IMG/VR virus record: IMGVR_UViG_3300042090_002370
Coordinates: 32,001-96,000 of that record
From: a virus
DNA: 64,000 nt
Direction: 5' to 3' (one strand)
Within the stretch, counting starts at the first letter, position 1. The number at the start of each line of letters is the position of its first letter. Positions 2,964 through 60,083 of the stretch are shown piece after piece. A program made the position numbers and the translations under genes. Under the pieces are notes generated by a model. That model was not told where the DNA came from and ran no database searches. It saw only the letters and a program-made list of their open reading frames with translations.

Positions 2964-3225
2964 TTCCTCGCTCTAGGAGCAGACCAGAATGCGGATCGAA
3001 GAGTGCGCGGCAAGCTACGCAACGAAGACAAGAACGAGGCACCAGGGTGTCTTGGTCACCGAAGACGTGCCCTCTGACGTGTTCCTTCTGGCAGGCGCCT
3101 CCGCACTGTTTGCACTTGAACTGCCTGTAGAAGGCGGCGAGCGCTTTTTGCGCGGGCGCCAGCTCGTCTGTGTACCCTTCGATGGCCTTCCTGGCGAGCT
3201 CGGGGTCCATTTCGATCAGCTTCAT
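2935..3225 (-). CDS. Small zinc-ribbon protein (CxxC...CxxC)
   Basis: CKQC, CLRC and CVAC clusters; preceded by its own sigma70-like promoter. Confidence 0.65.
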   Translation of the reverse strand: MKLIEMDPELARKAIEGYTDELAPAQKALAAFYRQFKCKQCGGACQKEHVRGHVFGDQDTLVPRSCLRCVACRALFDPHSGLLLERGTTSTRSAQR

Positions 3226-12789: not shown

Positions 12790-12831
12790 TAGCTAGGAAA
12801 AAGAGCGCCGGGGTTGCCTGCCCCTACGCTC
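12790..12831 (-). terminator. Terminator T1: hairpin + TTTTTCC + TAGCTA
   Basis: GAGCG/CGCTC and GGGG/CCCC stem, then a U-tract and TAGCTA on the minus strand, 12 nt after the stop of 12844..13584. Confidence 0.65.
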
Positions 12832-33649: not shown

Positions 33650-35061
33650 GCTGGTTTTACTGCCTTTAGTTGTTCGGCTAGATCCTTGTCATGTGTATCG
33701 GGTTCTGTAGGCTGCCCGCCCTTCTTGCCTTTCTTCGGCTTCTTCTCGTCCTCCCCCTGGTCACCCTCGACAGCTTTCTTGATGTCATGTTCTTGGAGTA
33801 TGGAGTGCTGCGTGAAATTCTTGGCTGGTATGGCGTGGATGCGTATTCCGTGAAGAGCGAACTCGCGACTGCCGCCTACAACCAGGCTGATAGTTGGAGC
33901 CTCCTTGTCGGCAATTACGCGTGCGAACATTGTTGCGTCCTGGCCGACGGCATCCGAGTAGGCGATCTCTCCGCTGCTGGCCTGGCCGTGGCCCTCAGCT
34001 TTACGATTCGCTTGAATTGTGGCGATGATCGGCACGTTCGTGCCGAGGTTCATGTCTCGCAGATCGCGTGAGATATTCATTACGCGCTGGTGGTCGCTTG
34101 TGTGCTTTCTGGAGTCGCTCATGAGATAGAAGCCGTCAACGAACACGATGTCCGGCTCGTACTGTTTGACCTTTGACCTTAACCACGGGACGTTGTCGTT
34201 TCCCGGTCCGACCTCGCGCCCGTTTACTACCTGGATAAGGTTGGCGAGGAATCGGTCGTTACGAAGGTCTTCGAGGAACCGAGCGAACTTGTGCTCGTCG
34301 TTCGGTTCTAGTGGGTTGAACTTAGACATTACGGCCCCGCGGAGCTCTCGGTAGCCGAAGAACAAGATACAGGCGAGCGTTCTCAAGTAAACGTTGTCTG
34401 GTGTCATCTCTTTCGTGTAGACGACAACACGCTTCTGTTCGTGGAATGCCCAGGACAGAAGGTATGCAAGTACCCAGGTCTTCATCGACTTGGGTCTGCC
34501 GTAGAATACGATGAAGTCATCCGGTTGCAGACCGAAGGTCTCTGCTTGCAGCGCGGGCCATGGCCAGCGCATTTTGGCGAAGTCGCGCCCCTCTTTCGCC
34601 CACTCTTTACGCTGCCACGCACTCTCCACCCCCTGTAAAATGGACATGTCTGTGTTGGCCGCGCAGCCGAGTGCCTGATACGTCTGCAGCTTTGACTGCA
34701 GTTCGCTGATTGGACCCATCGGATCGACTTGCGGTAGGGACATCGCCTGCGAGAATTTTACGGCATCCCTCTCGCATTGCGCTCGTACGCGCTGTCGGCG
34801 CACCTCACTACAGAGCCCTTTGATGCTGGTCCCGGGCATGTCGTCGCCCATGCTGAAGTCCATCTGGTGGTGCGCACTCAGTGTGGACGTGTCTATTATG
34901 GACCCTGCTGTACGCGGGTCTGTGTAGTAGCTGAAGATAGAAGTCCAAAGCACTCTCGCTTCGTCAGAGATGAAGTCGTCTGCTGTGATCCCGAATGAAA
35001 GAGCTGTTTCGATGTCACGAGATTTCAGAACGCGATAGCACAACGCCATTTGGTAGCTCAT
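33646..35061 (-). CDS. dnaB: DnaB-like replicative helicase
   Basis: GLQPDD, Walker A GRPKSMKT, EM, VFVDG, ISRDLR, QANR, YSDAVGQDA. Confidence 0.85.
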   Translation of the reverse strand: MSYQMALCYRVLKSRDIETALSFGITADDFISDEARVLWTSIFSYYTDPRTAGSIIDTSTLSAHHQMDFSMGDDMPGTSIKGLCSEVRRQRVRAQCERDAVKFSQAMSLPQVDPMGPISELQSKLQTYQALGCAANTDMSILQGVESAWQRKEWAKEGRDFAKMRWPWPALQAETFGLQPDDFIVFYGRPKSMKTWVLAYLLSWAFHEQKRVVVYTKEMTPDNVYLRTLACILFFGYRELRGAVMSKFNPLEPNDEHKFARFLEDLRNDRFLANLIQVVNGREVGPGNDNVPWLRSKVKQYEPDIVFVDGFYLMSDSRKHTSDHQRVMNISRDLRDMNLGTNVPIIATIQANRKAEGHGQASSGEIAYSDAVGQDATMFARVIADKEAPTISLVVGGSREFALHGIRIHAIPAKNFTQHSILQEHDIKKAVEGDQGEDEKKPKKGKKGGQPTEPDTHDKDLAEQLKAVKPA

Positions 35062-35097
35062 TCACCCTCCGTGGACGCGTAATCTGTATGCGACGCC

Positions 35098-35106
35098 CTT
35101 ATTCCG
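35098..35106 (-). promoter_or_regulatory. Phage-specific promoter motif P3 (CGGAATAAG)
   Basis: SGGRATAAG copy 36 nt upstream of the helicase ATG; heads the 11.5 kb replication operon. Confidence 0.75.
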
Positions 35107-35134
35107 CCAACGCGAGACAATGTGCAGCCCCGCG

Positions 35135-35160
35135 GAGCTAAAAAAAGGCGGCGCAGGCCG
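35135..35160 (-). terminator. Terminator T4: short hairpin + TTTTTTT + AGCTC
   Basis: CGGC/GCCG stem, U7 tract, AGCT; embedded in a larger structured intergenic region. Confidence 0.65.
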
Positions 35161-35269
35161 GACCGTCAACATGGCTCCGTTTTCGAAGCCATGTCAACGT
35201 GCCGAAGCCCCTTTTTTCTCGTGTCTTGTGGTGGCCCACAGCCGTAGCCACTAGGGGTTGTGGACGAGC

Positions 35270-43486: not shown

Positions 43487-46400
43487 ATGAGCTTCGTTGG
43501 ACCCGGTGGCGCAGTCGCTTCAGGCCCGGCTTCTGGCCTGCGGTTCGCGCAGTCGCGTGGGCGTATCCAGGGCTCCAATGTTACGGGCGTCAATTATCCG
43601 TCTCCGTTCTTCGATGTCGCCCACACCTACTTGCCCGTCACCGTCAAGGCGATGTTCAAATGGTGCCGCTATTACTTCCTCACGAATCCGCTCATCAATG
43701 CGGTAGTCTTCAAGTTGTCGGAGTACCCGGTCACCGACATCATCATTGACCATCCGTCGAATGAGGTGAAGAGGCGCTGGACCGACTACTTTCAAGACCA
43801 CCTTCGCTGGCAGCCATTTCGTGTAGAGGCCGGTCTCGATTACTTCGCATACGGTAACGGTTGTATCAGTCTAGGCTTCCCGTTCAAGAAGTATCTCTAC
43901 TGTAAGAACTGCGCGTTCCGGGATGAAGCGGGGAAGATTCGAGCGCAGTGGATCTTTACGAGCTTTCAGTTCCGCCTGACGTGCCCAAAGTGTGGCTACG
44001 TCGGCGACGCGCTCGCGAAGGACTTCTATTACAAGAATGCGAGCGGCATCAAGACCATCCGCTGGAATCCTGAAGACATCGAGATTACGTACAACGACAT
44101 CTCTGGGGAGTACACGTACTTCTACACCATCCCTGCAACGGTGCGTAATGACATTGTCATTGGCAGGAAGGACATTGTCGAAGGCGTGCCGCAGGTCTTC
44201 ATCCAAGCGATGCGTGAGCAGAAGGGTGTCATCTTCTCGAAGGACAACTTCTTCCACATGCGTAGGCCTACGTTGGCTACGCAGGACCGCGGTTGGGGCA
44301 CGCCACTTCTTCTGCCTGTTCTGAAGGACACGTTCTACCTCCAGGTCATGAAGAAGGCGCAGGAGGCCATCCTCCTCGAGCACATCGTTCCGTTGAGAGT
44401 TTTGTTTCCACAAGCCGGAAGCGGATCTAGCGACCCCTACTGCGTTTCGCCAGAGACTCTGGTCGAAACACCTTCTGGTTTGCTGCCGGCAGCAGAGGTT
44501 CGCGAGGGCGAGTTCCTTCGCAGCCACACGGGTGCGTGGCGACGCGTCGAGTACCAGAAGCGCCGTCAGATCAAGCCGGCCGAGAAGGTGTTCAAGTTCC
44601 AGATCGCCTCCCTTCCGGCCTTTCCGTTCGCGGTTTCGGAAGATCATCCGATCTTGGCGGTGCCTCGCGTATCCCGCAAGAAGCCGCGCGCTGGTCTGGT
44701 CGACCCGACTTTCATCGAAGCGAAAGCGCTCAAGAAGGGTGACTACGTTGCCTATCCCATCAAGCGCCAGATCCGTCGGGGTCAGATGCTCGATCTGGCA
44801 GACTACGTGACTGAGCGCGCAGCAACCGACAGCTGGGTCTACCGCCGGCTATCGCAGAGTGCTGCGGAAGCATACGAGTGGCTCGAGCAGAACGCAGATC
44901 CCGTGCACGCCTGGGGCGAACGGAAGAAGCTCCTGGAAGAGAAGGGATGGTCGGAGGCAGACTACGCTACTGCAGCAGCTGCGCGCCGCGAGCCTAAGGT
45001 AGATCGCGTGAGCCGCTTTCTGCCGATGTGCCCTGCTCTGGGTTCACTCATTGGCTACTACCTGTCCGAGGGATCGTACGGTGGTTCCACGGTTTCTTTC
45101 TCGCTGCACCTCGAGGAGAAGGACTTCGCAGAGCTCATTGAAAGCGCTGTGAAGAGGCTCGGGTTCCGTGGCGTGTCGCACTACGAGCGCCCAGAGCAAC
45201 ACGGTCGAACTGTTGTCATTGAGGATGTGATCCTATCCGAGCTGTTGGTCTCCATGTGCGGCTCCGGCTTTGCCGAGAAGCGCATCCCAGACGTTGTGTC
45301 GGAGGCTAGTGACGTCATCGTCCTGGATATGCTCCGTGCGCTGTTCAACGGAGATGGCTGTGACTTCAAGACAACCACAGATCGCGTCGGGTTGAAACTT
45401 GCGAACCCCTCGATGATCATGGAGGCGCGTCGACTCCTGCTCTCGTTCGGTCTCATCGGAGGCGTGGTCAAAGAGGAACCTACTGCCACCACGAAGTTCC
45501 GAACGACGAGTTACCAGCTGAACTACAACGGCCACGCCGCATATAAGCTACGGCACTTGTTCGGTAGGCCTGGGGGCTTTGACTGGCAGGAGCTGCCGCA
45601 GAAGAGCGGCCTCGTGCGTGGTGACTACGTGCTCTTGCGGATCGATGCCGTGCACGAAGTTGCCGATGTTCCCGAGGTCATCGGCTTTCAAATGGCGGAG
45701 GACAAGAGCTTCTGTGTCGCCGGTGTCGCGACACACAACACGACGATCAATCTCATCGACTGGCGTGACCAGGTCGCCGCTGAGATCGCCCGCTGGCGTT
45801 ATGACAACAACTACATACCCATCATGCCGTTGCCGCTAGGCAACCAGACCATTGGTGGTGACGGTCGTGCGCTCATGCTCACGCAGGAGATCACGACTTG
45901 GAGCGACCAGATTCTTAATGGCATGGGAGTGCCCGTGGAATTCATACGCGGCGGCCTTTCCTACGCCGGGACTAACGTCTCCATGCGCATGATGGAGAAC
46001 ATGTTCCTTGGGTACATCTCGAGGCAGAAGGCCCTCGCCAAGTTCGTAATGAAGCAGGTCTCTAGCTTCCTTGGTTGGCCGGAGGCGAACATTCGCTTCA
46101 AGCCATTCAAGATGGCCGACGATCTGCAGCGGAAGGCCTACTTGTTCCAGTTGAATCAGGCGAACAAGGTGAGCGACACGACGCTGCTAGCGGACAGTGA
46201 CCTCGACCAGGACGAAGAGAACGAGATTATGATTCGCGAGACGGACAAGCGAATCGAGGCGACGAAGAAACAGCAGCTGGCCATGGCCCGCATTCAGGGT
46301 GAGGCGCAGCAGATCATGATGAAGTTCCAGACTAAGGCACAGCAGGATGCGCAGCAGGCTATGGGCGCCCCCGCTGCGCCAGGCGAGCCTGGGGGTATAG

Positions 46401-46852
46401 AAATGCAGGGGCAGGGTGGAGGTCCAGGTGGCGCCGGCGGCGAAGGCGCGATGCGGACAATGCCTGTGGAGATGCAGGCCGCTGGGGCCGGCGCGAGCGG
46501 TATGGCTGCGCCACCCGCGCAGCCTACGGACCCGTCGCCGCAGGACTTTCTCTCGTCGGTCTCGAGCCAGCTTACGGGTGAGACGAGACTGAACCAGGAG
46601 CAGAGCCAGAAGGGTATTGACCTTCCCACTTATGCGATGGGCCAAGCAAAGCTACTCGTAACGATGGCTAAGCCTCAGCAGGAACAGGCCCTGAGAAACA
46701 TTCAGGCGATGAGCCCGGAGCTCGCCGACCTGGTGAAGCAGATGCTGGCTGAACTGCAGCCGCAGGAGCAGGCTGATAGCGGTAGTGCTGGCGTAGACAC
46801 GCGACCTCTACCGCAACAGCGTCCACCGCGACGAGCGGGCGGGATGGTGTGA
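43487..46852 (+). CDS. Portal protein containing an intein
   Basis: NPLINAVVFKLSEY, DYFAYGN, WNPEDI, FHMRR...RGWGTPLLLPVL, ILNGMGVP: portal-like. Intein at aa 319-751; Q/G/P-rich C-terminus. Confidence 0.7.
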   Translation: MSFVGPGGAVASGPASGLRFAQSRGRIQGSNVTGVNYPSPFFDVAHTYLPVTVKAMFKWCRYYFLTNPLINAVVFKLSEYPVTDIIIDHPSNEVKRRWTDYFQDHLRWQPFRVEAGLDYFAYGNGCISLGFPFKKYLYCKNCAFRDEAGKIRAQWIFTSFQFRLTCPKCGYVGDALAKDFYYKNASGIKTIRWNPEDIEITYNDISGEYTYFYTIPATVRNDIVIGRKDIVEGVPQVFIQAMREQKGVIFSKDNFFHMRRPTLATQDRGWGTPLLLPVLKDTFYLQVMKKAQEAILLEHIVPLRVLFPQAGSGSSDPYCVSPETLVETPSGLLPAAEVREGEFLRSHTGAWRRVEYQKRRQIKPAEKVFKFQIASLPAFPFAVSEDHPILAVPRVSRKKPRAGLVDPTFIEAKALKKGDYVAYPIKRQIRRGQMLDLADYVTERAATDSWVYRRLSQSAAEAYEWLEQNADPVHAWGERKKLLEEKGWSEADYATAAAARREPKVDRVSRFLPMCPALGSLIGYYLSEGSYGGSTVSFSLHLEEKDFAELIESAVKRLGFRGVSHYERPEQHGRTVVIEDVILSELLVSMCGSGFAEKRIPDVVSEASDVIVLDMLRALFNGDGCDFKTTTDRVGLKLANPSMIMEARRLLLSFGLIGGVVKEEPTATTKFRTTSYQLNYNGHAAYKLRHLFGRPGGFDWQELPQKSGLVRGDYVLLRIDAVHEVADVPEVIGFQMAEDKSFCVAGVATHNTTINLIDWRDQVAAEIARWRYDNNYIPIMPLPLGNQTIGGDGRALMLTQEITTWSDQILNGMGVPVEFIRGGLSYAGTNVSMRMMENMFLGYISRQKALAKFVMKQVSSFLGWPEANIRFKPFKMADDLQRKAYLFQLNQANKVSDTTLLADSDLDQDEENEIMIRETDKRIEATKKQQLAMARIQGEAQQIMMKFQTKAQQDAQQAMGAPAAPGEPGGIEMQGQGGGPGGAGGEGAMRTMPVEMQAAGAGASGMAAPPAQPTDPSPQDFLSSVSSQLTGETRLNQEQSQKGIDLPTYAMGQAKLLVTMAKPQQEQALRNIQAMSPELADLVKQMLAELQPQEQADSGSAGVDTRPLPQQRPPRRAGGMV
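44441..45739 (+). mobile_element. Intein with LAGLIDADG homing endonuclease (433 aa)
   Basis: Block A CVSPETLV, block B SEDHPIL, LAGLIDADG motifs LIGYYLSEGS and MLRALFNGDG, terminal ATHN followed by Thr. Confidence 0.93.
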
Positions 46853-46902: not shown

Positions 46903-46934
46903 TAGCTAAAAAAAGGGGCGGCACTGCCGCCCCT
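46903..46934 (-). terminator. Terminator T5: hairpin + TTTTTTT + AGCTA
   Basis: AGGGGCGGCA/TGCCGCCCCT inverted repeat adjoining the stop of 46934..47155. Confidence 0.85.
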
Positions 46935-47155
46935 CATTTGCATGATTCCTCGACGATGGCTTCGGCGAGGTCGACGCGCCACTGTTCATCGAGGCGCTTT
47001 CGGTCCTCGTAGGTCTGGTAGGGAACTGAGAGGAGGAACCGGTAGCAGCGGCTGACGCTCTCCGGCGACCGGTCCTCCACTTGGTTAGGTCCTGACCATA
47101 TCCAGCGACCGCGATCGTTCCACCAGTACCCGGTATGCGGGAACCATGTGCGCAT
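46934..47155 (-). CDS. Hypothetical protein (Trp-rich, 73 aa)
   Basis: Coupled to the VWA gene stop; ends at T5. Confidence 0.6.
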   Translation of the reverse strand: MRTWFPHTGYWWNDRGRWIWSGPNQVEDRSPESVSRCYRFLLSVPYQTYEDRKRLDEQWRVDLAEAIVEESCK

Positions 47156-48669
47156 CAGATACTGATGTCGTCTTCGTCATCCTCATCGGGCTCGTCCGGT
47201 AGAATGACTGCGGCCTTGCGTTGCTTCGGGTCCTCGGTGACGAAGACCGTGTGCCCGTAGCGGGCTGGGGCCTTGTTCCTGGCGTATCCGCCGAGGATTA
47301 GGCACCACACGATGTCCATGTACATCGGCGGCTTCTTGGGGGCCGCGCCGTCGCCGTCGGTGCAGTAGATGAGGATGTCGGGACGGGGGAAGAGCTTGTC
47401 GGCCGCCTTGATGGCTGGGATGAAGCTCGTGCCGCCGCGGCCGTGGGCCTCATTCAGCGTGCGGAAAAACTGCGGACCTACGCGCTTCCACGGCATGGCG
47501 ACGTCCGCGTCAGCATCTGTAAACCAGGCCTCGTCGACGCCGAGCGCCAGGAGGATGTGGTAGGCCTCGCGGATGCAGGCGTTGAGCTGCTCGATGTTCA
47601 TCGAGCCGGAGGTGTCTCGGACGATGGCGACTTCGGGCTGGTGCTCGATCATGCCTGGGCGGACGATGCCCCTCATGATGGAGCGTTTGGATGGGCGGGA
47701 CATCGAGAAGTCCTCCCCACCAGCCTGTACGCGACCGGTGGAGTGACGGATAACGTGCGCGAGTTCTGTCTGCCAGCGCACGTGCGGTTCCTCGATGAGG
47801 GCTTTGGCGAGCTCAGCCAGGCCTGCAGGAACGCTTCCGCGCCCATTCGCTTCGATGTGCGCTGCGATGTCCGCAGCCGTCTTTTTGGTGATGGTTTCCA
47901 TTTCGACGGCGCTGCGGCCATGTTCGGCGTTCAGCTTGTCGACAAGACGAGGATCGTCTGTTCCACCGGCTATGCTGCCGCAGTGGCCGGAGCAGACGCC
48001 GTTACCAAGTCCAGGTTTGGGCTCTTGCTTACTTTGACCTCCATCTTGGTCAGGCTGGCCGGCCGGCTCTTGCGTTTGCTGTGAGGGCGTGGCGCCATGC
48101 CCGCTTTGGCTTTGATCCTGCTTCTGCTGAGGATTTTGTCCGCCTCCCTGTTTATTAGGCGCTCCTTTGCCGGAGTTTCCGATGCTGGGCGTCGGCATGG
48201 TGGCGCCATTATGCTTCATCTGTAAAAGCCGGTCGTAGTACTCTTCTGTGGAAAGGCCCTCCGGTAACCCGACGTGCGCAGGAAAGATGGCGGGTCGCGT
48301 TGATTTCTCACCGGCGAGCTCCCAGATGCCTGTGTTGCGCATGTCAGGATTGATGGTGAGGTCGCCGGCCAGATTGAAGAGGTTTTTGTCTTCTACAGTC
48401 GCTCCGCGCTCGAAGTGCCTGCGCATGAAGTGGTTGACTTCATGGACGATGTCTGCGGCTAGCTCCTTGATGCTTGCTTCGTTGATCCACTGCGGGTCGT
48501 AAGCCAGTACCATCTGCGCTGTTACGCCCATGGTGCCAAGGCCTTCGACAGGCACGTAGATGAAACCGTGTACTACGCTCGCGAAGTATGGTGCATCGAA
48601 GACGACTGCTGCTCTCGCATAGGAAAGCTTGTCCTCGATAGTGTCCACAGATGGTATGAGCGAGATCAT
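47155..48669 (-). CDS. Metallopeptidase-like + VWA domain protein (DUF2201-type)
   Basis: HEVNH, NLAGDLTIN, EEYY, MIDAS DTSGSM, GRGGTSF, TDG. Confidence 0.85.
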   Translation of the reverse strand: MISLIPSVDTIEDKLSYARAAVVFDAPYFASVVHGFIYVPVEGLGTMGVTAQMVLAYDPQWINEASIKELAADIVHEVNHFMRRHFERGATVEDKNLFNLAGDLTINPDMRNTGIWELAGEKSTRPAIFPAHVGLPEGLSTEEYYDRLLQMKHNGATMPTPSIGNSGKGAPNKQGGGQNPQQKQDQSQSGHGATPSQQTQEPAGQPDQDGGQSKQEPKPGLGNGVCSGHCGSIAGGTDDPRLVDKLNAEHGRSAVEMETITKKTAADIAAHIEANGRGSVPAGLAELAKALIEEPHVRWQTELAHVIRHSTGRVQAGGEDFSMSRPSKRSIMRGIVRPGMIEHQPEVAIVRDTSGSMNIEQLNACIREAYHILLALGVDEAWFTDADADVAMPWKRVGPQFFRTLNEAHGRGGTSFIPAIKAADKLFPRPDILIYCTDGDGAAPKKPPMYMDIVWCLILGGYARNKAPARYGHTVFVTEDPKQRKAAVILPDEPDEDDEDDISI

Positions 48670-49862
48670 GGGTTTCGCGTTGTGTGTACGAAGAGAGATA
48701 TCTTGTCCGCGAACTTCTTGATGATCTTACGGGACACTGCGTCCATCGCCGATGAGTGCTTCGTGGTGAAGCCTGCGCGCATTAGAGGTACTGCGGCAGC
48801 GCATGCGGCATCGAGCATACCGTGCTTCTCCCAGGCATCGGTGAGCAATACCCATGCTTTCAACGCCCACTTTGTGCGCTCATCCTTGTCTGGCTTCGCA
48901 AGTGTCCAGGCGATGGCTTGGCCGTAGGCGGCGAAGCAGATATCAAGGCGGCGCTTGTCGGGCTCCCATCCGTTTGTCAGCATGTCTTCTGGACTCGGCA
49001 TGTTGGCTTTGAGGGTCCATTCTCCCCATGCAGCTGCTGGCCCTTTTCCAACGCACGCGGTGATGAACTCGAGACGCCACTCCTTACGGCCGATGCATTC
49101 GCAGGTGGCAGCGACGTTGGTGGCGAGGTCCCAGGTTCTGGGTGACGGCCACGCGCGGCCGCGGTCGACGTGACCGTCGCGCGGTATTTTCAGGAGCGTA
49201 TCCGGACCTAGGCTTTTGATGAACCCAGCGAATAGCCCTTGGTAGTAGGGGAAGACGTCGGGCCACTTCTTGCGGACCATCTCCTCGCCCTCATCGGCGC
49301 CGATGACCTGAGCAGCGTGGTTGCCCATTCGCCATGAGGCCCACTTGTCCGGCGACGGCGTAGGCATGTCGAAATGCATAAGGCGATTGGCCATAGGTAA
49401 GGATAGTGGCCAACCGCCTGCAGCTTCCTCTGGCGGGTTGGCGGCGGCCATGATGCGGATGCCTCCTGGTAGACGCTTGTTAGCCAGGATGCGGTCGCGC
49501 ACGAGACTCAGGCCTGCGCCCTGTACTGCCGGGCGTGCGCAGGTGAGCTCGTCTACGAAAATGACACCGCGCTTGGCCCTGATGAGATCTTGGATGCCGG
49601 GGTGCGCGATGTGTGTTGTCACACCGCCCTTGCCATCAGACATCGGAATGCCGCCGAGTTCTTCTGGTTGTGCTGTCGACAAGAAGAGCTCGCTTACGCT
49701 AAGCCCCACTGCGTGACCGGCCTCGCGGACGCTGTCGGACTTGCCAATGCCCGGCGACCCCCAGAGGATAGCAGGCGCACCCCAACGGCAATCATCGTCG
49801 TATGGGTTGTCCATCGGTGTGAGAAGTGCAACGGAGATGAGGTGTTCGACGGGGATGTCCAT
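48666..49862 (-). CDS. MoxR-family AAA+ ATPase
   Basis: GSPGIGKS, FVDELT, AAANP, ANRLMH, PSPRTW. Confidence 0.88.
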   Translation of the reverse strand: MDIPVEHLISVALLTPMDNPYDDDCRWGAPAILWGSPGIGKSDSVREAGHAVGLSVSELFLSTAQPEELGGIPMSDGKGGVTTHIAHPGIQDLIRAKRGVIFVDELTCARPAVQGAGLSLVRDRILANKRLPGGIRIMAAANPPEEAAGGWPLSLPMANRLMHFDMPTPSPDKWASWRMGNHAAQVIGADEGEEMVRKKWPDVFPYYQGLFAGFIKSLGPDTLLKIPRDGHVDRGRAWPSPRTWDLATNVAATCECIGRKEWRLEFITACVGKGPAAAWGEWTLKANMPSPEDMLTNGWEPDKRRLDICFAAYGQAIAWTLAKPDKDERTKWALKAWVLLTDAWEKHGMLDAACAAAVPLMRAGFTTKHSSAMDAVSRKIIKKFADKISLFVHTTRNP

Positions 49863-49870
49863 GTTGGTCT

Positions 49871-50494
49871 CTATCGATATTCGATGGTGGTTGGTTCAGC
49901 GGGCTGTTCTTCATCTTCCTCTGGCGCTTCGAAGTGGCAGCGGCATTCGCATTCTGACGCTCTCCAGCAGCGAGCTTGGATGCAATCGACGCATTCGCCG
50001 TACTCTGTAAGGTCGGGCCACATATCGATGCACCCATCGTTCAGGAGCGACATGCAGTAGAGGCAGATCAGATCGGGGTTACTGATGCCTAAGAAAGAGG
50101 CATCGTGCATGCCGTTCGGTGCGCGTTCGGAGATGTGGAACTCGCCGAGCGTTGCGAGCCCAGCGAGTTCAAACTCTCGTATGCCACTGCCGCAGCAGAC
50201 GCACTCGAACTTGCTATCGTAGTCGTTGACCGGTAGTTCGTCCTCCATGTCGCTGTGTATTTCGCCGTAGTTCTTCTCCCAGCACTGGATGCAGAAATAG
50301 TAGGGCTCGAATCGGAAGCAGCCGTCCGGGTCGTGCTCGTCGATGACCTCGTAGTGCAGTACGCCTTCCTGACCGCGTTTCGAGCGAACAATCTGGAGAA
50401 GAAAAACCTCGTCCATGTAAACCACGGCTCCGCCACAATCGGCGCAGATGTGGTCCGTTTTGCGCAGCTCGATTGGGTCTAGCTCTTTTCCCAA
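49871..50494 (-). CDS. Cys-rich acidic multi-zinc-ribbon protein
   Basis: CADC, CIQC, CVCC, CLYC, CVDC, CECRCH. Confidence 0.65.
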   Translation of the reverse strand: MGKELDPIELRKTDHICADCGGAVVYMDEVFLLQIVRSKRGQEGVLHYEVIDEHDPDGCFRFEPYYFCIQCWEKNYGEIHSDMEDELPVNDYDSKFECVCCGSGIREFELAGLATLGEFHISERAPNGMHDASFLGISNPDLICLYCMSLLNDGCIDMWPDLTEYGECVDCIQARCWRASECECRCHFEAPEEDEEQPAEPTTIEYR

Positions 50495-51063
50495 CGTACT
50501 CTCTTCCTCTCTGCTCGCATCCAGCGGTGCTCAATGGTCTCGAAGCGCGTGTCGGGCGACTGCCCTGTTTCTGGTGCGTAGTCCCCGAGCATTACAAAGA
50601 GATCTTCTACGTCATAGTTCTTCCCTATGTGTACACGCCTGGCTATGTCGTACTCCGTGGTGAGGATGCTCATCGGCATCTGTGTTCGCAGCAGGCCTTC
50701 TCGTTCGAGTAGGTCGTCGCGTAGGTCTTCGTCGTCGCAGGCCAGACCGACCCAGCTCTCACTGGTGCAATCAACGTAGTACTCGTCCAGCCATGGGCAG
50801 AACTCGCCGGGTTGGGCGTAGCCCAGTATTACTTCCAGATCGCGTTGATTGCAGAAGGAGATGAATCCCTTCTGGTCGCGAATCTTTACGCGCAGGCCGC
50901 CTAGAACGCGGCCTGGGATGGGCATGTATGCGGTCTCGACTTGCCAGATACGTCGAGCATCGAGGGGGTCCGTAAACCGAACCCCCTCGATGCCTAGCTG
51001 TGTTTCTATGACGCGGGTTCCTGGGAATGTACTGGGTCTGTCACGGTACAGGTTGATGATCAA
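50479..51063 (-). CDS. Hypothetical protein
   Basis: GGAG RBS with TTG start; 194 aa. Confidence 0.65.
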   Translation of the reverse strand: MIINLYRDRPSTFPGTRVIETQLGIEGVRFTDPLDARRIWQVETAYMPIPGRVLGGLRVKIRDQKGFISFCNQRDLEVILGYAQPGEFCPWLDEYYVDCTSESWVGLACDDEDLRDDLLEREGLLRTQMPMSILTTEYDIARRVHIGKNYDVEDLFVMLGDYAPETGQSPDTRFETIEHRWMRAERKRVRWEKS

Positions 51064-51154: not shown

Positions 51155-51163
51155 CTTATTCCC
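51155..51163 (-). promoter_or_regulatory. Phage-specific promoter motif P5 (GGGAATAAG)
   Basis: SGGRATAAG copy heading the MoxR/VWA unit. Confidence 0.75.
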
Positions 51164-51186
51164 GTAGTGTTCAACCTATTTCCGCG

Positions 51187-51342
51187 TTACTCGCCCTCGT
51201 CTTCGCTTTCCTCGTCGTCTTCATCGAAGTCTTCATCGAAGTCTTCGGACCCGTCGTCTGTAGGTAGCAGCTCGCGTTCGATCTTTCGCTCCATGCCGCC
51301 ACCCACCGTCTCTTCTTTTACCTTCTTGTCCTTCGGTCCCAT
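51187..51342 (-). CDS. Small protein with a highly acidic C-terminal tail (51 aa)
   Basis: GAAAGG RBS; MGPKDKKVKEE...SEDFDEDFDEDDEESEDEGE. Confidence 0.6.
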   Translation of the reverse strand: MGPKDKKVKEETVGGGMERKIERELLPTDDGSEDFDEDFDEDDEESEDEGE

Positions 51343-51378
51343 ATTGATGCCTTTCGTGGCGTTGCATCTCCCATCTCT

Positions 51379-51387
51379 CTTATCCCG
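51379..51387 (-). promoter_or_regulatory. Phage-specific promoter motif P6 (CGGGATAAG)
   Basis: SGGRATAAG copy 36 nt upstream of ATG 51342; divergent from the RNAP gene. Confidence 0.75.
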
Positions 51388-51435: not shown

Positions 51436-54400
51436 ATGATTGCAGCGGCCATGGCGTATTTGGACCCCAAGAAGGCGTTCGAACACCTGAAGGAACGCGT
51501 GCTCGAGGGCATACAGGACCAATTTGCCAAGAACCCCATTGTCGGGAAGAAGCAGTCGCTGCACCTTGAGGCGCTCGAAGTACGCGACAAGTTAGGTGAG
51601 GCAGACGACATCCGCGCACAGCACAAGGCAAAGGTGGAGAACGACACCTGGGCGGTGCCTATTTATGCCACACTGGCGCTCAAGGATAACGAGACCGGAA
51701 AGGCGTTAGACCGTCGAACTATCCGCATCGCGGAGATTCCGAAGACGACTAACAGGCACTCGTACATCATCGATGGGCAGGAGTATCAGGTCAACAACCA
51801 GTGGCAATTGCGGCACGGCATTTATGTAAAGCGCCGTGTGAACGGTGAGCTTGAGGCTGCGTGCAACGCGGGTCGCGGGTTCGATGTTGTGCTGGACCCG
51901 GCAACCAAAGTCTTTCGAATGGAGCACGGTAAGAGCCGCGGTAAGCTCCCCATCTACCCATTCCTCAAGACGCTTGGTGTGAGCGACGAAGATCTCATGA
52001 AGTCGTGGGGCAAGGAGATGTTCGAAGCGAATCAGAAGGCGCCGAAGTCGGACATTGCGCTCGAGAAATTCTACAAGGCGGATAAGCCGTGGGCAGGTAC
52101 TCCAACCAAGGAGGTCGCTGCCGAGCACTTCTACGACATGATGGAGAAGACGCATCTCCGTCCAGAGTCCACGCAACTCACGTTAGGGCGGCCCTTCACG
52201 CATGTATCCGGCGAGGCGCTGAAGCTCGCAACTGAGAAGATGCTCAAGGTACAGGCGGGGCACCCAGAGGATGACCGCGATTCACTGGTCTTCAAGGATC
52301 TACGTACCGCCGGTGACTTCGCCTATGACGCCATTCTACATCAGCGCAAGAATATTGAGACACGTGCCGGGCGACAGATCGACAAAGCAAAGGACGCCTA
52401 TGACGTCATGAAGTTCGACATGTTCAACAAGCCCATCAAGGGGGCGTTGTCCTCAGCGAACGCGGCGGCTATGCCGGCATCGCAGATCAATCCACTAGAG
52501 ATGGCGTCGTCTGCGATGCAGACTACTATCATGGGCGCAGGCGGTATTCGTACCGCGCAGCAGGTACAGCATGAAGCGAAGTTTGTGAATCCCAGCCATC
52601 TCGGTTTTCTTGATCCGCTCAACACACCGGAGGGTGAGAAAACAGGTGTCACATTGCGGCTGCCTATCGGTGTACGCAAGGTCGGGCACGAGGCGAAGAT
52701 TCCTCTCTACAACCTGCTCTCCAAAAAAACCGAGCTTGTCTCTCCAGGCGAGTTCATGGAGGCAAACATCGTCCTGCCAGATCAGGTGAAGTGGGAAGAT
52801 GGCGTACCGCATCCGCTGCACCATACAGTTCGCGCGAGCTCTAAGGGCAACGAGATTCGCGACGTGAAATTCGAGGATGCGCACTACGTTATGCGCAGCC
52901 CTTCTCAGCTTTTCAACATGACTTCGAACCTCATTCCATTCCTGGCGAACACGAGCGGTAACCGCGCGTCTATGGCGAGCAGGCATATGGAACAGGCGGT
53001 CTCGCTCTTGCATCGTGAGGCCCCACTTGTCCAGGTAGGTACAGGCTCCGACAAGGAAGGCATCGACACCTTCGAGAACATCATGGGCTACCAGGCGTCC
53101 CACGCTGCTTCGGAAGAAGGCAAAGTTGTAGCAGTGAACAGGGACGGCATTATCATTGAAGACCGCCTTGGTAAGAAGCACGAAGTTCAGCTCTACAACA
53201 ACTACCCGCTCAATGACGCCAAGAGTGTGATGCACTCTACACCCGTTGTCGCCGTCGGCGATCATGTGAAGAAGGGTCAGCTCATTGCAGACACGAACTT
53301 CTCCAAGAATGGGACGCTCGCTCTCGGCACGAACTTGCGCGTCGCGTACCTGCCCTTCAAAGGGTACAACTTCGAGGACGGTGTTGTCATTAGTGACAGC
53401 GCTGCCAAGAAGCTCTCGAGTGAGCATCTGCAGAAGCTGATGATGCCACTCGACCAGGAGACCATACTCGACAAGAAGCGCTTCCACATCTCCAACCCCG
53501 GGTTGATGACGAAGGAACAGTACGAGAAGATGGACTCGAACGGCATAGTGCGGGTGGGGCAGAAGGTCCAGCCAGGCGACCCGCTCGTTGCAGCGATGCG
53601 ACCGTACAAATTGAAGGACCGTACGGGTATGGCGGCTGTGCGCAAGGCCATGGGCGGTCGGCACGATGACCGCAGCATGCGGTGGGACAGCGACTTCGAG
53701 GGCGAGGTCGTAGGCGTACATCGCAGCGACAAAGGGCTGACCGTTCATGTTCGCACGGTCGAGCCTATGCAGGTCGGCGACAAGATCAGTAATCGTTATG
53801 GTGGGAAAGGTATCGTCACCAAGATTCTGCCCGACCCTGAGATGCCGCACACGAAGGACGGTAAGCATATAGAGGTAGCGCTAAACCCCAGCGGCATACC
53901 GGGGCGCATGAACGTGGGGCAGGTCTTCGAGACCTCCGTCGCCAAGATCGCCGAGAAGACCGGCAAGCCCTACATCGTGAAGAACTTCGACACGAACATG
54001 GACGTCATCGCCAAGGTCCAGGCTGACCTGAAGGCGCACGGGCTCTCGGACACCGAGGAGCTCAAGGATCCTGCGACTGGGCAGATCCTTGGGCAGGTGA
54101 CGGTGGGGCCGCAGCACATCTTCAAACTCGTTCACCAGATCGACAAGAAGCTTGCAGTGCGCAGCGGCAGTGGGACCCTGCCTGGGGCAGCGGCGGAGCA
54201 TTACGACTTGAATCTGCAGCCCATGGGTGGCAAGAGCACTGGCGGGCAGTCGATGGGCACGCTGGGGCTCTTCGCGCTCCTGGCGCACGGCGCCAAAGCA
54301 AACATCCGGGAGATGCAGACATACAAGTCGGAGGGCCCGGACCCGCAGACCGACCCGGCGAAGAGGTGGCCGAGCGACCACCACCGGATCTGGGCAGCCA

Positions 54401-57400
54401 TTCAGACTGGGCACCCACTACCGACGCCCAAGCCGACTTTTGCTTACCGCAAGTTCGAAGACATGCTACGCGGGAGTGGCATCAACATCGAGAAGAAGGG
54501 GCATGACCTTATCCTCTCGCCAATGACGGACCAACACATACGAGCGCTGGCGAAGAACGCACTGCCGCACCCTGCGGACATGCTGAACTCGAAGATGGAC
54601 AAGAACGGAGACCCTAAGCCTAAGGCCGGTGGGCTCTGGGATGAGAAGCTTACTGGTGGGTTGGGCGGTCGTCAGTGGACGCGAATCGAGCTATCTGAAC
54701 CGCTGCCAAACCCCATCTTCGAGAAGCCTATCAAGGCACTGACCGGGCTCTCTCCAAAAGACTTTAATGCTGTTCTGCATGGAAGTAAGGGCGTCACGGC
54801 GAATGGCAACATCACGGAGGCCGGCGCCGGCGTAACTGGCGGAGCGGGCATCAAGGTTTTGCTAGACCGCGTCAACGTTGCGCGCGATCTCGCCAAGGCC
54901 GAGGCTCAGCTGAAGATCGTCAAGGGGCAGAGCGTCGACCGTGTACTGAAGAAGGTAAAGTACTTGCGGGCGCTCAAGCAGATTGGGGTGACCCCAAGCG
55001 AGGCGTACATCCTTCACAACATCCCTGTCATGCCGCCCATCATGCGACCGGTATCGAAACTGCCGGATGGGTCACCTAAGTTCGACGATATCAACCAGCT
55101 CTATTCCGACTTCGCGAAGATCAACGATAAGTTGAAGGACCCCATCTTGGTGAGGAATCTCACTGACGAGGGGAAGTCGGATCTCCGCAAGGACTTCTAC
55201 GACGGCGCCAAGATGTTCATGGGCATGGGGCTCCAGTACGGAGATGCCAAGCACAAGGGGCTACTGCACCAGATTGCCGGCAGCTCACCGAAACACGGCT
55301 ACTTCCAGGACAAGCTCATCGCCCGCAAGCAGGATCTGACGATGCGCTCGACCATCGTCCCCGAGCCAGGTCTCGATTTGGATGAGGTGGGTCTGCCGAA
55401 GCACGCCGCGCTCGAGCTTTTCAAGCCCTTTGTCGTTCGCCAGCTCAAGCAGATGGGCGCCATACAGAACGAGGTGCAGGGCGCGGCCTTTGTAGAGAAG
55501 AAGAGCCCACAGGTCTGGCGTGCGCTCGATCGTGTGATGGCGGAGCGACCTATTCTCCTAAAGCGAGACCCTGCGCTGCACAAGTACAATGTGCAAGCCT
55601 TCCGTGCACGGCCTATTGAGGGCGACGCTGTGCGCATACACCCGCTCGTGACGGGCGGATACAACGCCGATTTCGACGGCGACACGATGAGTGCCTTCGT
55701 GCCCATCACGCACGATGCGGTGAACGAGGCCGTACGGATGTTCCCCTCTCATAACCTCTTCAGCGAGGCGACTGGCCGGCTTATGTACCAGCCGACGCTC
55801 GAGAGCGCCCTCGGACTCTACAAGCTGTCGGTAGTTGGTAAGGACTCCGGGCAGAAGTTTGAGCACGCTGGCCTGGCACTTGACGCCGTGCGTTCGGGGA
55901 AGCTTGGGTATACCGATGTCGTACACATCGGTGGCAAGAAAACCACGCCGGGGCGCATTCTGCTCTCCAGCGCGGTTCCGGAGGCTATGCAGAGCGAGAT
56001 GCTGCATGATCTTCACTATCGAATCGACGGTAAGTCAGCGGGCCTGAGCGCGCTTCTGACAGGCATTGCTAAGCATTACGGCCCGCAGTATGGAGAGGTC
56101 GTCAACAAGCTGAAGGATCTCGGCAACACTACGACATTCGGAGCAGCAGCGGTTCCGCGGGCTACTAGCGCTGGGCACGCGATGTCTTTTAGCACGTTGG
56201 GTAAGAACCCAGTCGCAACACTCAATAAGAAGATGGATGTCTTCATCCCAGTTGGGGCGCACACACTCTCGCTTAAGGACTTCGAGCCGGACAAGGCGTC
56301 GAGGGACCACGTGCTGTCAGCAGCTCACAAGGTCGTAGAGAAATACGCCGACGACCCGAAAATGACTAAGGACGAGAGGGATCGCAGAACCATTGCCGTA
56401 TACGAACACGCCGCCGACGAGATGAAGGCCCTACATGAAAAGAAGGAAGAGAAAGACCCAAGCAACCTCTACACAATGTACAAGGCTGGCGTGAAGCCTG
56501 GCTGGGACCAGTACAAACAGATGGTTCTAGCACCCATGATTTACAAGGATTCCGCTGATCGGAAGATTCCGATACCTGTGACCAAGAGCTACGCAGAGGG
56601 GCTAGACGTAGGCAGCTACTGGACTCAGATGCACGGCGCCCGACGCGGTTCGGTCATGAAGGTGCAAGAGGTCAGCGGTCCAGGCTATCTATCCAAGTTG
56701 CTCATGAACAACATGATGCACATTCTTGTGAACTCTCCTGATTGCGGGACGAGCAAGGGCATCGTCCTGGACGCCAATGAGGCAGATATTCATGATCGAT
56801 ACCTGCAGCAGGAGTTCACACACGGCAAGGTTACTTTTCCTGCGGGTACGCTACTCACCCCAAGCGTTGTCGGGAAGATCCGAGCGGCGAAGAAGGACGC
56901 CAAGCTGCTTGTACGAAGCCCGCTGAAATGCGAGGACCCGAAAGGGATTTGCCAGATGTGCTCAGGGCTTGGCTCGAGTGGTCAGCACTACGACCTGGGG
57001 CACAATCTCGGCGTGCAGTCTGCACAAGCCGTTGGTGAACGCGGCATCCAGTTAGCGCTCAAGAGCTTTCATACAGGTGGCGTAGGCGAACACAAGGGCG
57101 GCTCGAAGCTGCTCAACTCCTTCGAGCGCTTCAAGCAGCTTATGTACTTGCCTGAGAAAGTTCAGGACGAGTCCTCCCTAGCGATGAAGACTGGGAAGGT
57201 TGAACAGATCGTGCCTACGTCAACAGGAGTTGACATCTTCATCGGCGGGCAGAAGCACCATGTGGGCCGCGATACGAAGGGCATGCCGCTGCATCAGCCG
57301 CTGCCAGGCGCAGAGGCGGTAGAGGGCTATGTCCACTGGAAGGTTCCGGTGGTCGGGCAGCACCTCAAGGCAGGGGACACGCTCTCCGACCCCAACCGTA

Positions 57401-57915
57401 CGCTGCTCAACCCCCATCATCTCTATGCGGCGACAGGCTCCATTGAGGAGGTACAGAATCACCTCACGAATGAGATCTACGGGCTCTACCAGAAGGAAGG
57501 CATCAAGCGTCGAGCCATTGAAACGGTCGTGCGCGCGATGAGTAACCTAACCAAGGTCAATGACCCTGGCGAGCATCCCGATGTCCTCCGCGGTGAGTTC
57601 TACCCGCTGGCACAGGTGCAGCATATGAACCAAGAGCTGCTGCGCAACAAGAAGCGGCCTATCGAACACGAGCCGGTGATGAAAGGCATCAGCGCTATGC
57701 CTCATGCCCTCATTGAGGATTGGATGGCGAAGTTGCAGCATGAACATCTGCGAACGACGCTCACTGAGGCCGCGGCGATGGGCGGCATTTCCCACCTCCA
57801 TTCTACTCACCCGATTCCAGCCATTGCTTTCGGCGCCGAATTCGGGCTTACTTCCAAGGACGCGCTAAAGCCAGGGCATGAACACTTACGTGATGTGCCG
57901 GCGCATTACTACTAG
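51436..57915 (+). CDS. rpoBC: Single-chain DNA-directed RNA polymerase: fused beta-beta' subunits
   Basis: Beta motifs: YIIDGQE, NTPEGEKTG, LIPFL...NRASM, GYNFED, GDKISNRYGGKG, NPSGIPGRMNVGQ, GGQSMG. Beta' motifs: PVMPPIMRP, LELFKPF, catalytic NADFDGD (55663-55683), bridge helix HGARRG, trigger loop LKSFHTGG. No stop between the two halves. Start at 51436 or 51451. Confidence 0.96.
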   Translation: MIAAAMAYLDPKKAFEHLKERVLEGIQDQFAKNPIVGKKQSLHLEALEVRDKLGEADDIRAQHKAKVENDTWAVPIYATLALKDNETGKALDRRTIRIAEIPKTTNRHSYIIDGQEYQVNNQWQLRHGIYVKRRVNGELEAACNAGRGFDVVLDPATKVFRMEHGKSRGKLPIYPFLKTLGVSDEDLMKSWGKEMFEANQKAPKSDIALEKFYKADKPWAGTPTKEVAAEHFYDMMEKTHLRPESTQLTLGRPFTHVSGEALKLATEKMLKVQAGHPEDDRDSLVFKDLRTAGDFAYDAILHQRKNIETRAGRQIDKAKDAYDVMKFDMFNKPIKGALSSANAAAMPASQINPLEMASSAMQTTIMGAGGIRTAQQVQHEAKFVNPSHLGFLDPLNTPEGEKTGVTLRLPIGVRKVGHEAKIPLYNLLSKKTELVSPGEFMEANIVLPDQVKWEDGVPHPLHHTVRASSKGNEIRDVKFEDAHYVMRSPSQLFNMTSNLIPFLANTSGNRASMASRHMEQAVSLLHREAPLVQVGTGSDKEGIDTFENIMGYQASHAASEEGKVVAVNRDGIIIEDRLGKKHEVQLYNNYPLNDAKSVMHSTPVVAVGDHVKKGQLIADTNFSKNGTLALGTNLRVAYLPFKGYNFEDGVVISDSAAKKLSSEHLQKLMMPLDQETILDKKRFHISNPGLMTKEQYEKMDSNGIVRVGQKVQPGDPLVAAMRPYKLKDRTGMAAVRKAMGGRHDDRSMRWDSDFEGEVVGVHRSDKGLTVHVRTVEPMQVGDKISNRYGGKGIVTKILPDPEMPHTKDGKHIEVALNPSGIPGRMNVGQVFETSVAKIAEKTGKPYIVKNFDTNMDVIAKVQADLKAHGLSDTEELKDPATGQILGQVTVGPQHIFKLVHQIDKKLAVRSGSGTLPGAAAEHYDLNLQPMGGKSTGGQSMGTLGLFALLAHGAKANIREMQTYKSEGPDPQTDPAKRWPSDHHRIWAAIQTGHPLPTPKPTFAYRKFEDMLRGSGINIEKKGHDLILSPMTDQHIRALAKNALPHPADMLNSKMDKNGDPKPKAGGLWDEKLTGGLGGRQWTRIELSEPLPNPIFEKPIKALTGLSPKDFNAVLHGSKGVTANGNITEAGAGVTGGAGIKVLLDRVNVARDLAKAEAQLKIVKGQSVDRVLKKVKYLRALKQIGVTPSEAYILHNIPVMPPIMRPVSKLPDGSPKFDDINQLYSDFAKINDKLKDPILVRNLTDEGKSDLRKDFYDGAKMFMGMGLQYGDAKHKGLLHQIAGSSPKHGYFQDKLIARKQDLTMRSTIVPEPGLDLDEVGLPKHAALELFKPFVVRQLKQMGAIQNEVQGAAFVEKKSPQVWRALDRVMAERPILLKRDPALHKYNVQAFRARPIEGDAVRIHPLVTGGYNADFDGDTMSAFVPITHDAVNEAVRMFPSHNLFSEATGRLMYQPTLESALGLYKLSVVGKDSGQKFEHAGLALDAVRSGKLGYTDVVHIGGKKTTPGRILLSSAVPEAMQSEMLHDLHYRIDGKSAGLSALLTGIAKHYGPQYGEVVNKLKDLGNTTTFGAAAVPRATSAGHAMSFSTLGKNPVATLNKKMDVFIPVGAHTLSLKDFEPDKASRDHVLSAAHKVVEKYADDPKMTKDERDRRTIAVYEHAADEMKALHEKKEEKDPSNLYTMYKAGVKPGWDQYKQMVLAPMIYKDSADRKIPIPVTKSYAEGLDVGSYWTQMHGARRGSVMKVQEVSGPGYLSKLLMNNMMHILVNSPDCGTSKGIVLDANEADIHDRYLQQEFTHGKVTFPAGTLLTPSVVGKIRAAKKDAKLLVRSPLKCEDPKGICQMCSGLGSSGQHYDLGHNLGVQSAQAVGERGIQLALKSFHTGGVGEHKGGSKLLNSFERFKQLMYLPEKVQDESSLAMKTGKVEQIVPTSTGVDIFIGGQKHHVGRDTKGMPLHQPLPGAEAVEGYVHWKVPVVGQHLKAGDTLSDPNRTLLNPHHLYAATGSIEEVQNHLTNEIYGLYQKEGIKRRAIETVVRAMSNLTKVNDPGEHPDVLRGEFYPLAQVQHMNQELLRNKKRPIEHEPVMKGISAMPHALIEDWMAKLQHEHLRTTLTEAAAMGGISHLHSTHPIPAIAFGAEFGLTSKDALKPGHEHLRDVPAHYY

Positions 57916-59195: not shown

Positions 59196-59809
59196 CCGTA
59201 CAGTTCGTAGAAGAGCTCTCGCTCGGTGAGCTGATGCCGGGGATTGTTCTTCTCATCCCACCACTGCTTGCCGGCTTCGATCTTGTTCTCACTGGGCCGT
59301 TCGGTCTTGGGACACTGCTAGCGGATGTCTCGGTGCAGCTCGCGGCGTCGATCTCAATTCAGGTGCAGATAGGGCTGCAGATATCGAACCCCTTTGCCGC
59401 TATTGAGGCGCAGCTTGCAGCGTTAGTACAAATTCAAGCGACGCTAGAGGCCTCGCTTTCTCTGGGGCTGCCTTCAGTAGCTGTTGGCTTCTCGGCATCC
59501 TTGAGCGCTAATGCTGCCATTGCGGCGTCCCTTGGCGCTCAGATTGGTGGTATTCAAGCGCTCATTCAAGCCTCCTTGGCATTGAAGATTCCAATCGTTT
59601 CCCTACTGGCTGCGCTGGAGGTCGGTCCAGCGGACCTCTTCACGGTCGGCTTCGATACGCCGGACAACATCAATGACATCGGTGCAGGTATACTCTCAGC
59701 TCGGCTGTCGCCCGGTTGCACGCTTGCGGACACCCCCGTCTACGGCGTCATCTTGCTCACCAACGGCGCTGCGGTACAGGCCAGCATGGGCCTCATCTTC
59801 AATCCGTAG
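59192..59809 (+). CDS. Hydrophobic Ala/Leu-rich virion protein
   Basis: GTG start overlapping the upstream stop (GTGA). Confidence 0.6.
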   Translation: MTVQFVEELSLGELMPGIVLLIPPLLAGFDLVLTGPFGLGTLLADVSVQLAASISIQVQIGLQISNPFAAIEAQLAALVQIQATLEASLSLGLPSVAVGFSASLSANAAIAASLGAQIGGIQALIQASLALKIPIVSLLAALEVGPADLFTVGFDTPDNINDIGAGILSARLSPGCTLADTPVYGVILLTNGAAVQASMGLIFNP

Positions 59810-59839
59810 CTAAAAAGAAGCGGGTTGTGCCCGCTTCTT
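59807..59839 (-). terminator. Terminator T6: hairpin + U-tract + AGCTA
   Basis: AAGAAGCGGG/CCCGCTTCTT inverted repeat; minus strand ends CTTCTTTTTAGCTA. Confidence 0.85.
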
Positions 59840-59845
59840 CGCGCC

Positions 59846-60083
59846 TCAGCGCGTTTCGGCCAGGTGCATCGAGTAGAGGATGGTTATGAAGACGCGCTCC
59901 GCACTTCGGACGATGACACCGGGCTTCTCGTGATTGTAGTTCACGAGGTCTGAGCGCACGCTCGGGTCCTTCAGAAACACGATACCTGGCTTGTGCGCCA
60001 GCCACTCGTTTGTCTCCTTCTCTACGACGTCAGGGGGCTCCGAAGAAGAACTTGATCTGCGGTTTGGGATGAAATTCGGACAT
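59846..60083 (-). CDS. 78-aa protein split by a +1 frameshift at CCC_TGA (programmed, or a 1-nt insertion)
   Basis: GGAGG RBS, MSEFHPKPQIKFFFGAP then stop. The +1 frame continues PDVVEKETNEWLAHKPG...ITILYSMHLAETR to TGA 59846, just before T6. Confidence 0.55.

Follow-up and report, generated by a model that had tools for sequence, protein, structure and literature searches.

An N-terminal zinc-binding domain of beta' has been described as common to all multisubunit RNA polymerases (RNAPs); among phage enzymes it is carried by the non-virion RNAP of phiKZ and is absent from that of AR9 (PMC7618050), and both of these polymerases are devoid of a rudder (PMC9209446). Where the zinc ribbon would be expected, the N-terminal part of AR9 beta' reads DGIYSERIFG, 13 mostly acidic residues, and then IGWINIEP. 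The ribbon is a contact site for several regulators: it is bound by the put RNA of HK022, which suppresses pausing and termination (PMC9378689), it serves as a docking surface for Q21 (PMC6606751), and it enters the Rho ring in the Rho-engaged complex (PMC9908020). It has also been removed by design, in a Thermus thermophilus RNAP purified by Murayama et al. with beta' residues 57–80 replaced by AAA, where Rho-dependent RNA release was unchanged (PMC9908020).

The closest cultured systems to the polymerase described here are those of Salmonella phage Arash, in whose virions Gp206, Gp216 and the sigma-like Gp10 are abundant (PMC10585845), and of Vibrio phages D69, D148 and D181. In the literature searched we found no published description of the RNAP of this clade beyond the Arash annotation, and the zinc domain is not mentioned in the Sokolova 2020 review.

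Architecture of a single-chain phage polymerase

The window analysed here is a stretch of 64 000 nucleotides, part of an IMG/VR virus record of 163 859 bp with a completeness estimate of 88%. An open reading frame at 51436–57915 on the plus strand, which also carries all the polymerase features located below, translates into a protein of 2159 amino acids (P0001). Because Pfam places Rpb2_3 and Rpb2_6 in its first half and Rpb1_1, Rpb1_2 and Rpb1_5 in its second, and because the top hits in a search of solved structures are without exception bacterial beta' chains (E 4e-90), we identify P0001 as a beta-beta' RNAP fused into one chain. The beta C-terminus (FEDMLRGSGINIE) runs into the beta' N-terminus (LILSPMTDQ) at 54454–54534, as located by hhalign and translation. 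The gene lies between a homolog of the Arash portal gene (43487–46852) and a homolog of the large terminase gene just past the end of the window.

In its beta' portion P0001 is collinear with bacterial RpoC, and the zipper, lid, clamp helices, rudder, NADFDGD motif, bridge helix, trigger loop and second zinc site can all be aligned. The hhalign alignments of zipper, lid and rudder contain small gaps at most: the zipper equivalent (54559–54633) matches Salmonella beta' residues ~35–58 without a large gap, the lid equivalent (55030–55083) matches residues 245–263, and the rudder equivalent (55222–55305) is ~6 residues shorter. The catalytic motif NADFDGD (55663–55683) was placed by translation and alignment to bacterial beta', with YNADFDGD occupying P0001 residues 1409–1416 in the double-psi beta-barrel. 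In the beta portion, which Pfam recognizes through Rpb2 domains 3 and 6, the flap with its tip helix is alignable, and the flap-tip equivalent (DRTGMAAVRKAMGGRH, 53617–53664) falls short of its Salmonella counterpart by 7 residues (family beta hhalign, probability 100%). An insertion of ~11 residues in the beta C-terminal region (GPDPQTDPAKRWPSD, 54334–54378), opposite a gap in bacterial beta, is conserved across 94 relatives. P0001 differs from the bacterial enzyme in the fusion of beta' to beta, the lack of lineage-specific insertions, the shortened flap tip, the replacement of the clamp-helix arginines that contact sigma70 and the absence of the zinc ribbon.

Deletion of the beta' zinc ribbon

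In Salmonella and E. coli beta', the sequence DGLFCARIFGP is followed by the zinc ribbon (C70/C72 and C85/C88) and then by RRERMGHIEL. The earlier note had read the corresponding part of P0001 as a clean deletion of the zinc domain with both flanks kept, and our analysis confirms this. When a 42-sequence family profile was aligned by hhalign to one built from six beta' N-termini of bacteria and phages (probability 100%, E 6e-47), the sole 32-residue gap coincided with Salmonella beta' 66–97 (E. coli is identical here), which is exactly the Cys4 zinc ribbon. The gap falls between L1076 and G1077 of P0001, at about nucleotides 54663/54664, and its flanks are in register, with GGLWDEKLTGGL pairing with DGLFCARIFGPV on one side and GGRQWTRIELSEP with RRERMGHIELASP on the other. 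With this gap and a Cys-free segment in its place, P0001 lacks the N-terminal Cys4 zinc-binding domain that PMC7618050 attributes to all multisubunit RNAPs. The ribbon-less segment as a whole (GGLWDEKLTGGLGGRQWTRIEL) comprises residues 1065–1086 (54628–54693), as delimited from translation and hhalign.

The gap is bridged by a Gly-rich connector, TGGLGGRQW (54652–54678; family consensus TGGHGG(R/K)KW), whose T, G, G, G and W do not vary among 48 aligned sequences. Residues 1000–1530, modelled with AlphaFold2 from 48 sequences, gave a mean pLDDT of 82, and in this model the connector forms a short turn just ahead of a strand (pLDDT 86–95). Foldseek returned bacterial beta' chains as the best fold matches of this model (E ~1e-32); the TM-scores of ~0.47 stem from how the domains are arranged in a fragment modelled on its own, and we take the matches as confirmation of the fold only. 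The connector resembles the Thermus construct, in which ~three small residues bridge the deletion much as H/L-G-G does here, although that construct is a laboratory deletion in an otherwise wild-type five-subunit enzyme of which few activities were assayed. AR9 offers the natural parallel, having lost the ribbon at the same site as P0001. However, its polymerase is far more diverged and is split into several subunits without a rudder, unlike the single, rudder-bearing chain of P0001, and it reads uracil-containing template-strand promoters with a promoter-specificity subunit that is not a sigma factor.

A replacement for the ribbon could in principle reside elsewhere in the chain or in a separate protein, and either would have overturned the reading of a lost domain. 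The second zinc site (56740–56961), which the earlier note had described as retained, is indeed intact: its four cysteines, C1770, C1832, C1839 and C1842, match those of bacterial Zn2 in the alignment and are 98–100% conserved in 94 full-length relatives, where no other cysteine is conserved. No second conserved Cys cluster that could form a substitute Cys4 site was found anywhere in the chain among these relatives. P0001 has just five cysteines in total, and since the conserved ones are the Zn2 four, the chain holds no replacement site. As for supply in trans, by a small phage zinc-ribbon protein docking at the vacated position, the genome does contain several small CxxC...CxxC ORFs, and zinc-ribbon ORFs of this kind at 34938–35243 (−), 130962–131222 (+) and 133452–133874 (+) of the genome have counterparts in two relatives, the nearest complete one (G001) and G002; a 207-aa protein with 17 cysteines is also encoded by the operon that runs divergently to the RNAP gene. 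Nevertheless, no small zinc-ribbon ORF was common to all four genomes compared (tblastn, E 1e-4), a weak test given how fast small proteins diverge, even though the deletion is universal. What the small-ORF screen did recover from all four was limited to the portal, a protein of 300 aa and a frame antisense to the RNAP gene and lying within it. The connector, a tight, confidently modelled and strongly conserved turn, also speaks against a zinc-ribbon partner, and both the AR9 RNAP and the Thermus deletion enzyme function without one. We therefore regard supply in trans as very unlikely.

The same junction recurs throughout the relatives of P0001. A search with residues 980–1300 retrieved more than 219 protein clusters, mostly of 2120–2170 residues and from metagenome contigs of 160–200 kb, and 119 of the 120 sequences among the matches listed carry the motif GGLFDEKLTGGHGG(R/K)KW(S/T)(R/H)I.LAEP with a Cys-free linker. 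Some relatives carry inteins. In IMG/VR, where the linker was read straight from the reading frame, the same short Cys-free linker is present in all 67 loci, whose identity ranges between 60% and 28%. The cultured relatives Arash (Gp206) and Vibrio phage D69 share it as well. Chance or an assembly error as the source of the deletion is ruled out by this recurrence in the listed relatives, the IMG/VR loci and the two cultured phages.

Arash (Gp206 and Gp216) and Vibrio phages D69, D148 and D181 belong to the same clade as P0001, at 30–33% identity. They have in common with it the ribbon-less linker (GGLFDMTVTGGPEGQNWSHYKL), the fusion of beta to the N-terminal half of beta' and a location near the portal gene; the C-terminal half of beta' is a separate gene in these phages, whereas P0001 is one chain. 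Of these phages, Arash alone has a documented sigma gene and, by mass spectrometry, documented presence of the proteins in the virion (PMC10585845). P0001 itself shows two features that mark the Arash-like clade, a beta fused to at least the N-terminal half of beta' and the linker GGLFD..TGGxxGxxW.

Other phage lineages keep the ribbon. The phage beta' relatives phiKZ GP55 (non-virion RNAP), Rhizobium RHph_TM21B, Cobetia Carin-5 and Ralstonia RP13 retain the Cys4 ribbon, with CxC...CxxC at its position in the last three, and the same cysteines are found in IMG/VR loci L083, L085, L086, L090, L092 and L093; one further lineage, L088 on a 244-kb contig, is likewise devoid of the ribbon. On this sequence distribution, the loss is an old, clade-wide trait that is both defining and ancestral for the phage RNAP clade. 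It is most simply read as a secondary deletion, since the sequence on either side can be aligned and these polymerases are plainly of bacterial type; the presence of CxC...CxxC in bacterial beta' and in four other phage beta' lineages also counts towards secondary loss.

The converse, that the domain was never present and the clade goes back to an ancient polymerase older than the insertion of the zinc ribbon, finds some encouragement in the view of some authors that the multisubunit RNAPs of jumbo phages are early-branching (PMC7824862). We judge it quite improbable: the clade shares 25–33% identity with bacterial beta and beta', bacterial chains are its best matches, zipper, lid, rudder and Zn2 are retained, the sequences on either side of the ribbon match position by position, and more distant phage beta' lineages still possess the ribbon. 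That P0001 might instead be a decayed, non-functional remnant, a reading whose sole support is the missing domain, is scarcely credible in view of an intact 6.5-kb frame with all catalytic motifs present, purifying selection on the family across hundreds of relatives, and the rank of the Arash homolog as top virion protein by spectral count.

Sigma factor, promoter motif and terminator tail

The clamp coiled-coil of beta', the docking site for sigma region 2, lies at 55084–55221 of the window (hhalign; AlphaFold2 helices at 219–263 of the model). Its contact residues have diverged, as the earlier note had noticed. Reading the hhalign alignment by hand, we find S, D, I and D at the positions of E. 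coli R270, R271, R275 and R281, and D in place of A302; the register is less certain along the second helix.

Thirteen of 16 related genomes encode a protein matching Sigma70_r3; among the 13 with a completeness of 90% or more, 12 do so. In the present, 88%-complete record no sigma factor was detected with Pfam Sigma70 r2, r3, r4 and r4_2, TIGR02937, Arash Gp10 or an HMM of 24 Gp10 relatives, and the ORFs after the Gp8 homolog encode no sigma-like protein. A gene at 163.1 kb, right where this record ends, has a homolog in G001 that is followed ~2 kb further on by the sigma gene. The counterpart of that sigma gene here has probably been cut off by the end of the record, a conclusion drawn from one synteny comparison.

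A promoter-like motif, SGGDATAAG, occurs 9 times in the window (1.2 expected). Two copies, found in the motif count at 51155–51387 on the minus strand, face away from the RNAP gene, and the motif recurs at the matching position in two related loci (L012 and L013). Against a control, the counts are 21 versus 4 in this genome, 12 versus 2 in G002 and 13 versus 0 in G009.

A second sequence element follows terminator-like hairpins. The sequence TTTTAGCT occurs 5 times in the window, with 0.8 expected. In our terminator scan, the hairpin + T-run + AGCTAC site nearest the RNAP gene is at 59790–59860 (−), and further ones are at 46911 (−), 35146 (−), 23626 (−), 15457 (+) and 12802 (−). Genome-wide, a hairpin, a T-run and (C/CT) followed by TAGCTAC are combined at ~11 sites, where ~0.3 would be expected. 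The T-run+TAGCTAC pattern is common in this genome and in its 80%-identical relative L012 only. L012 has two TTTCCTAGCTAC sites at positions matching those of this genome, and L013 has a degenerate CTAGCC tail. Elsewhere the element fades: 16 other zinc-ribbon-less genomes have 0–3 T-run+TAGCTAC sites each, near the reversed-pattern control, and the exact pattern TTTYNTAGCTAC has no match in Arash or D69. A looser test, which required a hairpin and five or more consecutive T to be followed closely, within a few bases, by AGC, gave 9 of 14 terminator-like sites here, 5 of 16 in G002, 1 of 21 in G001, 1 of 34 in G008 and 2 of 63 in G009; the denominators are rough, as the Python hairpin scan picks up many weak sites in AT-richer genomes.

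The earlier note had suggested that loss of the ribbon, which influences promoter binding and termination, may explain both the non-standard promoter and the added AGCT terminator element, and had proposed to check whether deletion and element co-occur across relatives. The idea takes its appeal from the position of the ribbon, which borders the RNA exit channel and contacts regulators of pausing and termination, as well as from the excess of TAGCTAC sites in this genome and the weaker AGC tails of G002 and L013. Such co-occurrence failed to appear, with near-background counts in all 16 of the other ribbon-less genomes and no AGC enrichment in G001, G008 or G009. Since the tail is not co-distributed with the deletion, which is universal in the clade, it is a trait of one subclade and much younger than the deletion. 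The private promoter also finds a more direct explanation in a phage sigma factor than in the missing ribbon, because motif and sigma gene co-occur in relatives, and RNA release by Rho was normal with the Thermus deletion enzyme (PMC9908020). A causal role of the ribbon in either element is thus unlikely, and at the level of the subclade nothing speaks in favour of a link between ribbon and tail. The looser AGC tails of G002 and L013 could reflect some link between this polymerase lineage and a post-U-tract element.

Proposed working and implications

We consider it likely that P0001 is the catalytic core of a phage-encoded, bacterial-type, single-chain RNAP that lost the zinc ribbon by a precise secondary deletion and is active, probably with its own sigma factor and probably after delivery in the virion, and that this loss is not the source of the AGCT(AC) tail. 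Mutations in the zinc ribbon reportedly alter the efficiency of intrinsic termination. That a polymerase can work without the ribbon follows from the activity of the Thermus deletion enzyme, and P0001 would likewise be active without it; with the ribbon absent from an active enzyme, one wall of the RNA exit channel would be missing. The enzyme probably works with a phage-encoded sigma on the motif GG(A/G/T)ATAAG. By analogy with its Arash homolog (33% identity), which appears to be carried in the particle, P0001 is probably delivered in the virion. The domain is probably dispensable in such an enzyme, which would have no need of the host regulators that dock there (put RNA, Q-type antiterminators and Rho). 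A self-contained polymerase of this kind may no longer need a domain mainly serving host regulation, or may gain from losing it.

A more elaborate scheme would give the open exit channel a role of its own. Here the polymerase, delivered in the virion, would escape the notice of ribbon-docking host factors, terminator hairpins would act on it differently, (CT)AGCTAC would have co-evolved in one subclade as a polymerase-specific part of the terminator, and the insertion in beta would partly rebuild the missing wall. The beta C-terminal region and the zinc ribbon line the same RNA exit channel (PMC6606751), and compensation for the lost ribbon by the insertion at 54334–54378 is speculation on our part. 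We hold this scheme to be unlikely.

The finding, of moderate reach, leaves the promoter and the terminator tail of this phage unexplained by ribbon loss. Its interest lies in a near-complete bacterial-type RNAP that has dispensed with one 'universal' domain across hundreds of phages, with AR9 as precedent. The clade, large and widespread among phages, thereby offers a deletion experiment performed by nature and seen across hundreds of sequences, which suggests that the domain may be dispensable for a working polymerase maintained by selection. Termination and antitermination factors dock on the zinc ribbon, and the Arash and Vibrio phages offer cultured systems for the study of its part in pausing, hairpin termination and factor control.

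Putative transcription signals, and genes near the polymerase gene

At several sites in the window and in the whole record (G000), a strong hairpin with a T-run is followed by the tail (C/CT)TAGCTAC. The window sites are at 12802(-), 15457(+), 23626(-), 35146(-), 46914(-) and 59816(-); further sites, numbered on G000, are at 20722, 109118, 119340, 131649, 141153, 142039 and 143145. This tail is limited to the present phage and its closest kin (the 80%-identical locus L012), with a related tail, AGCCC/AGCTCC, in the related genome G002. It may belong to the terminator, mark a start site or act as a signal for processing.

Divergent from the RNA polymerase gene lies an operon (window 47155–51063, minus strand) that is conserved in L012 and another IMG/VR locus, L013, and encodes four proteins: one of 194 aa, one of 207 aa that contains 17 Cys, a 398-aa MoxR-like AAA_5 ATPase and a 504-aa DUF2201 metallopeptidase/VWA protein. 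At the far end of the record, the promoter-like motif GGGGATAAG (G000 163326–163334, plus strand) lies 0.5 kb before the terminus and is directed outward past it. Because of synteny with the related genome G001, a sigma-factor gene may be located just beyond this end.

A probable intein in the portal gene, and inteins in polymerase homologs

The portal homolog (window 43487–46852, plus strand) comprises 1121 aa, compared to 691–694 aa in L012 and L013. Residues 613–683 form a LAGLIDADG_3 domain, and the protein therefore probably contains an intein. LAGLIDADG or intein-splicing domains are also present in many polymerase homologs of 2400–2980 aa (P0034–P0036, P0046, P0050, P0056, P0059, P0083, P0084, P0092 and others), making the polymerase gene a frequent target of inteins.

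Beta-side elements and zinc-ribbon loss

The beta C-terminal region lines the RNA exit channel, the same channel as the missing zinc ribbon, and harbours a conserved insertion of ~11 residues (QTDPAKRWPSD and neighbours; window 54334–54378, plus strand) that might partially fill the zinc-ribbon gap. The flap-tip helix region, on which sigma region 4 and NusA dock in bacteria, corresponds to window 53617–53664 (plus strand); the Salmonella flap tip is 7 residues longer than that of the phage enzyme and differs in sequence.

A phage beta' N-terminal part without zinc ribbon (GLFSERIFGPEGSKERRLIFSYIEL) is also found in locus L088 (IMGVR_UViG_3300037245_003526, 244,552 bp), as the N-terminus of an ORF spanning locus position 3001. 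Since both L088 and the AR9 non-virion polymerase lack the zinc ribbon, the comparison suggests that it has been lost repeatedly among phage polymerases.
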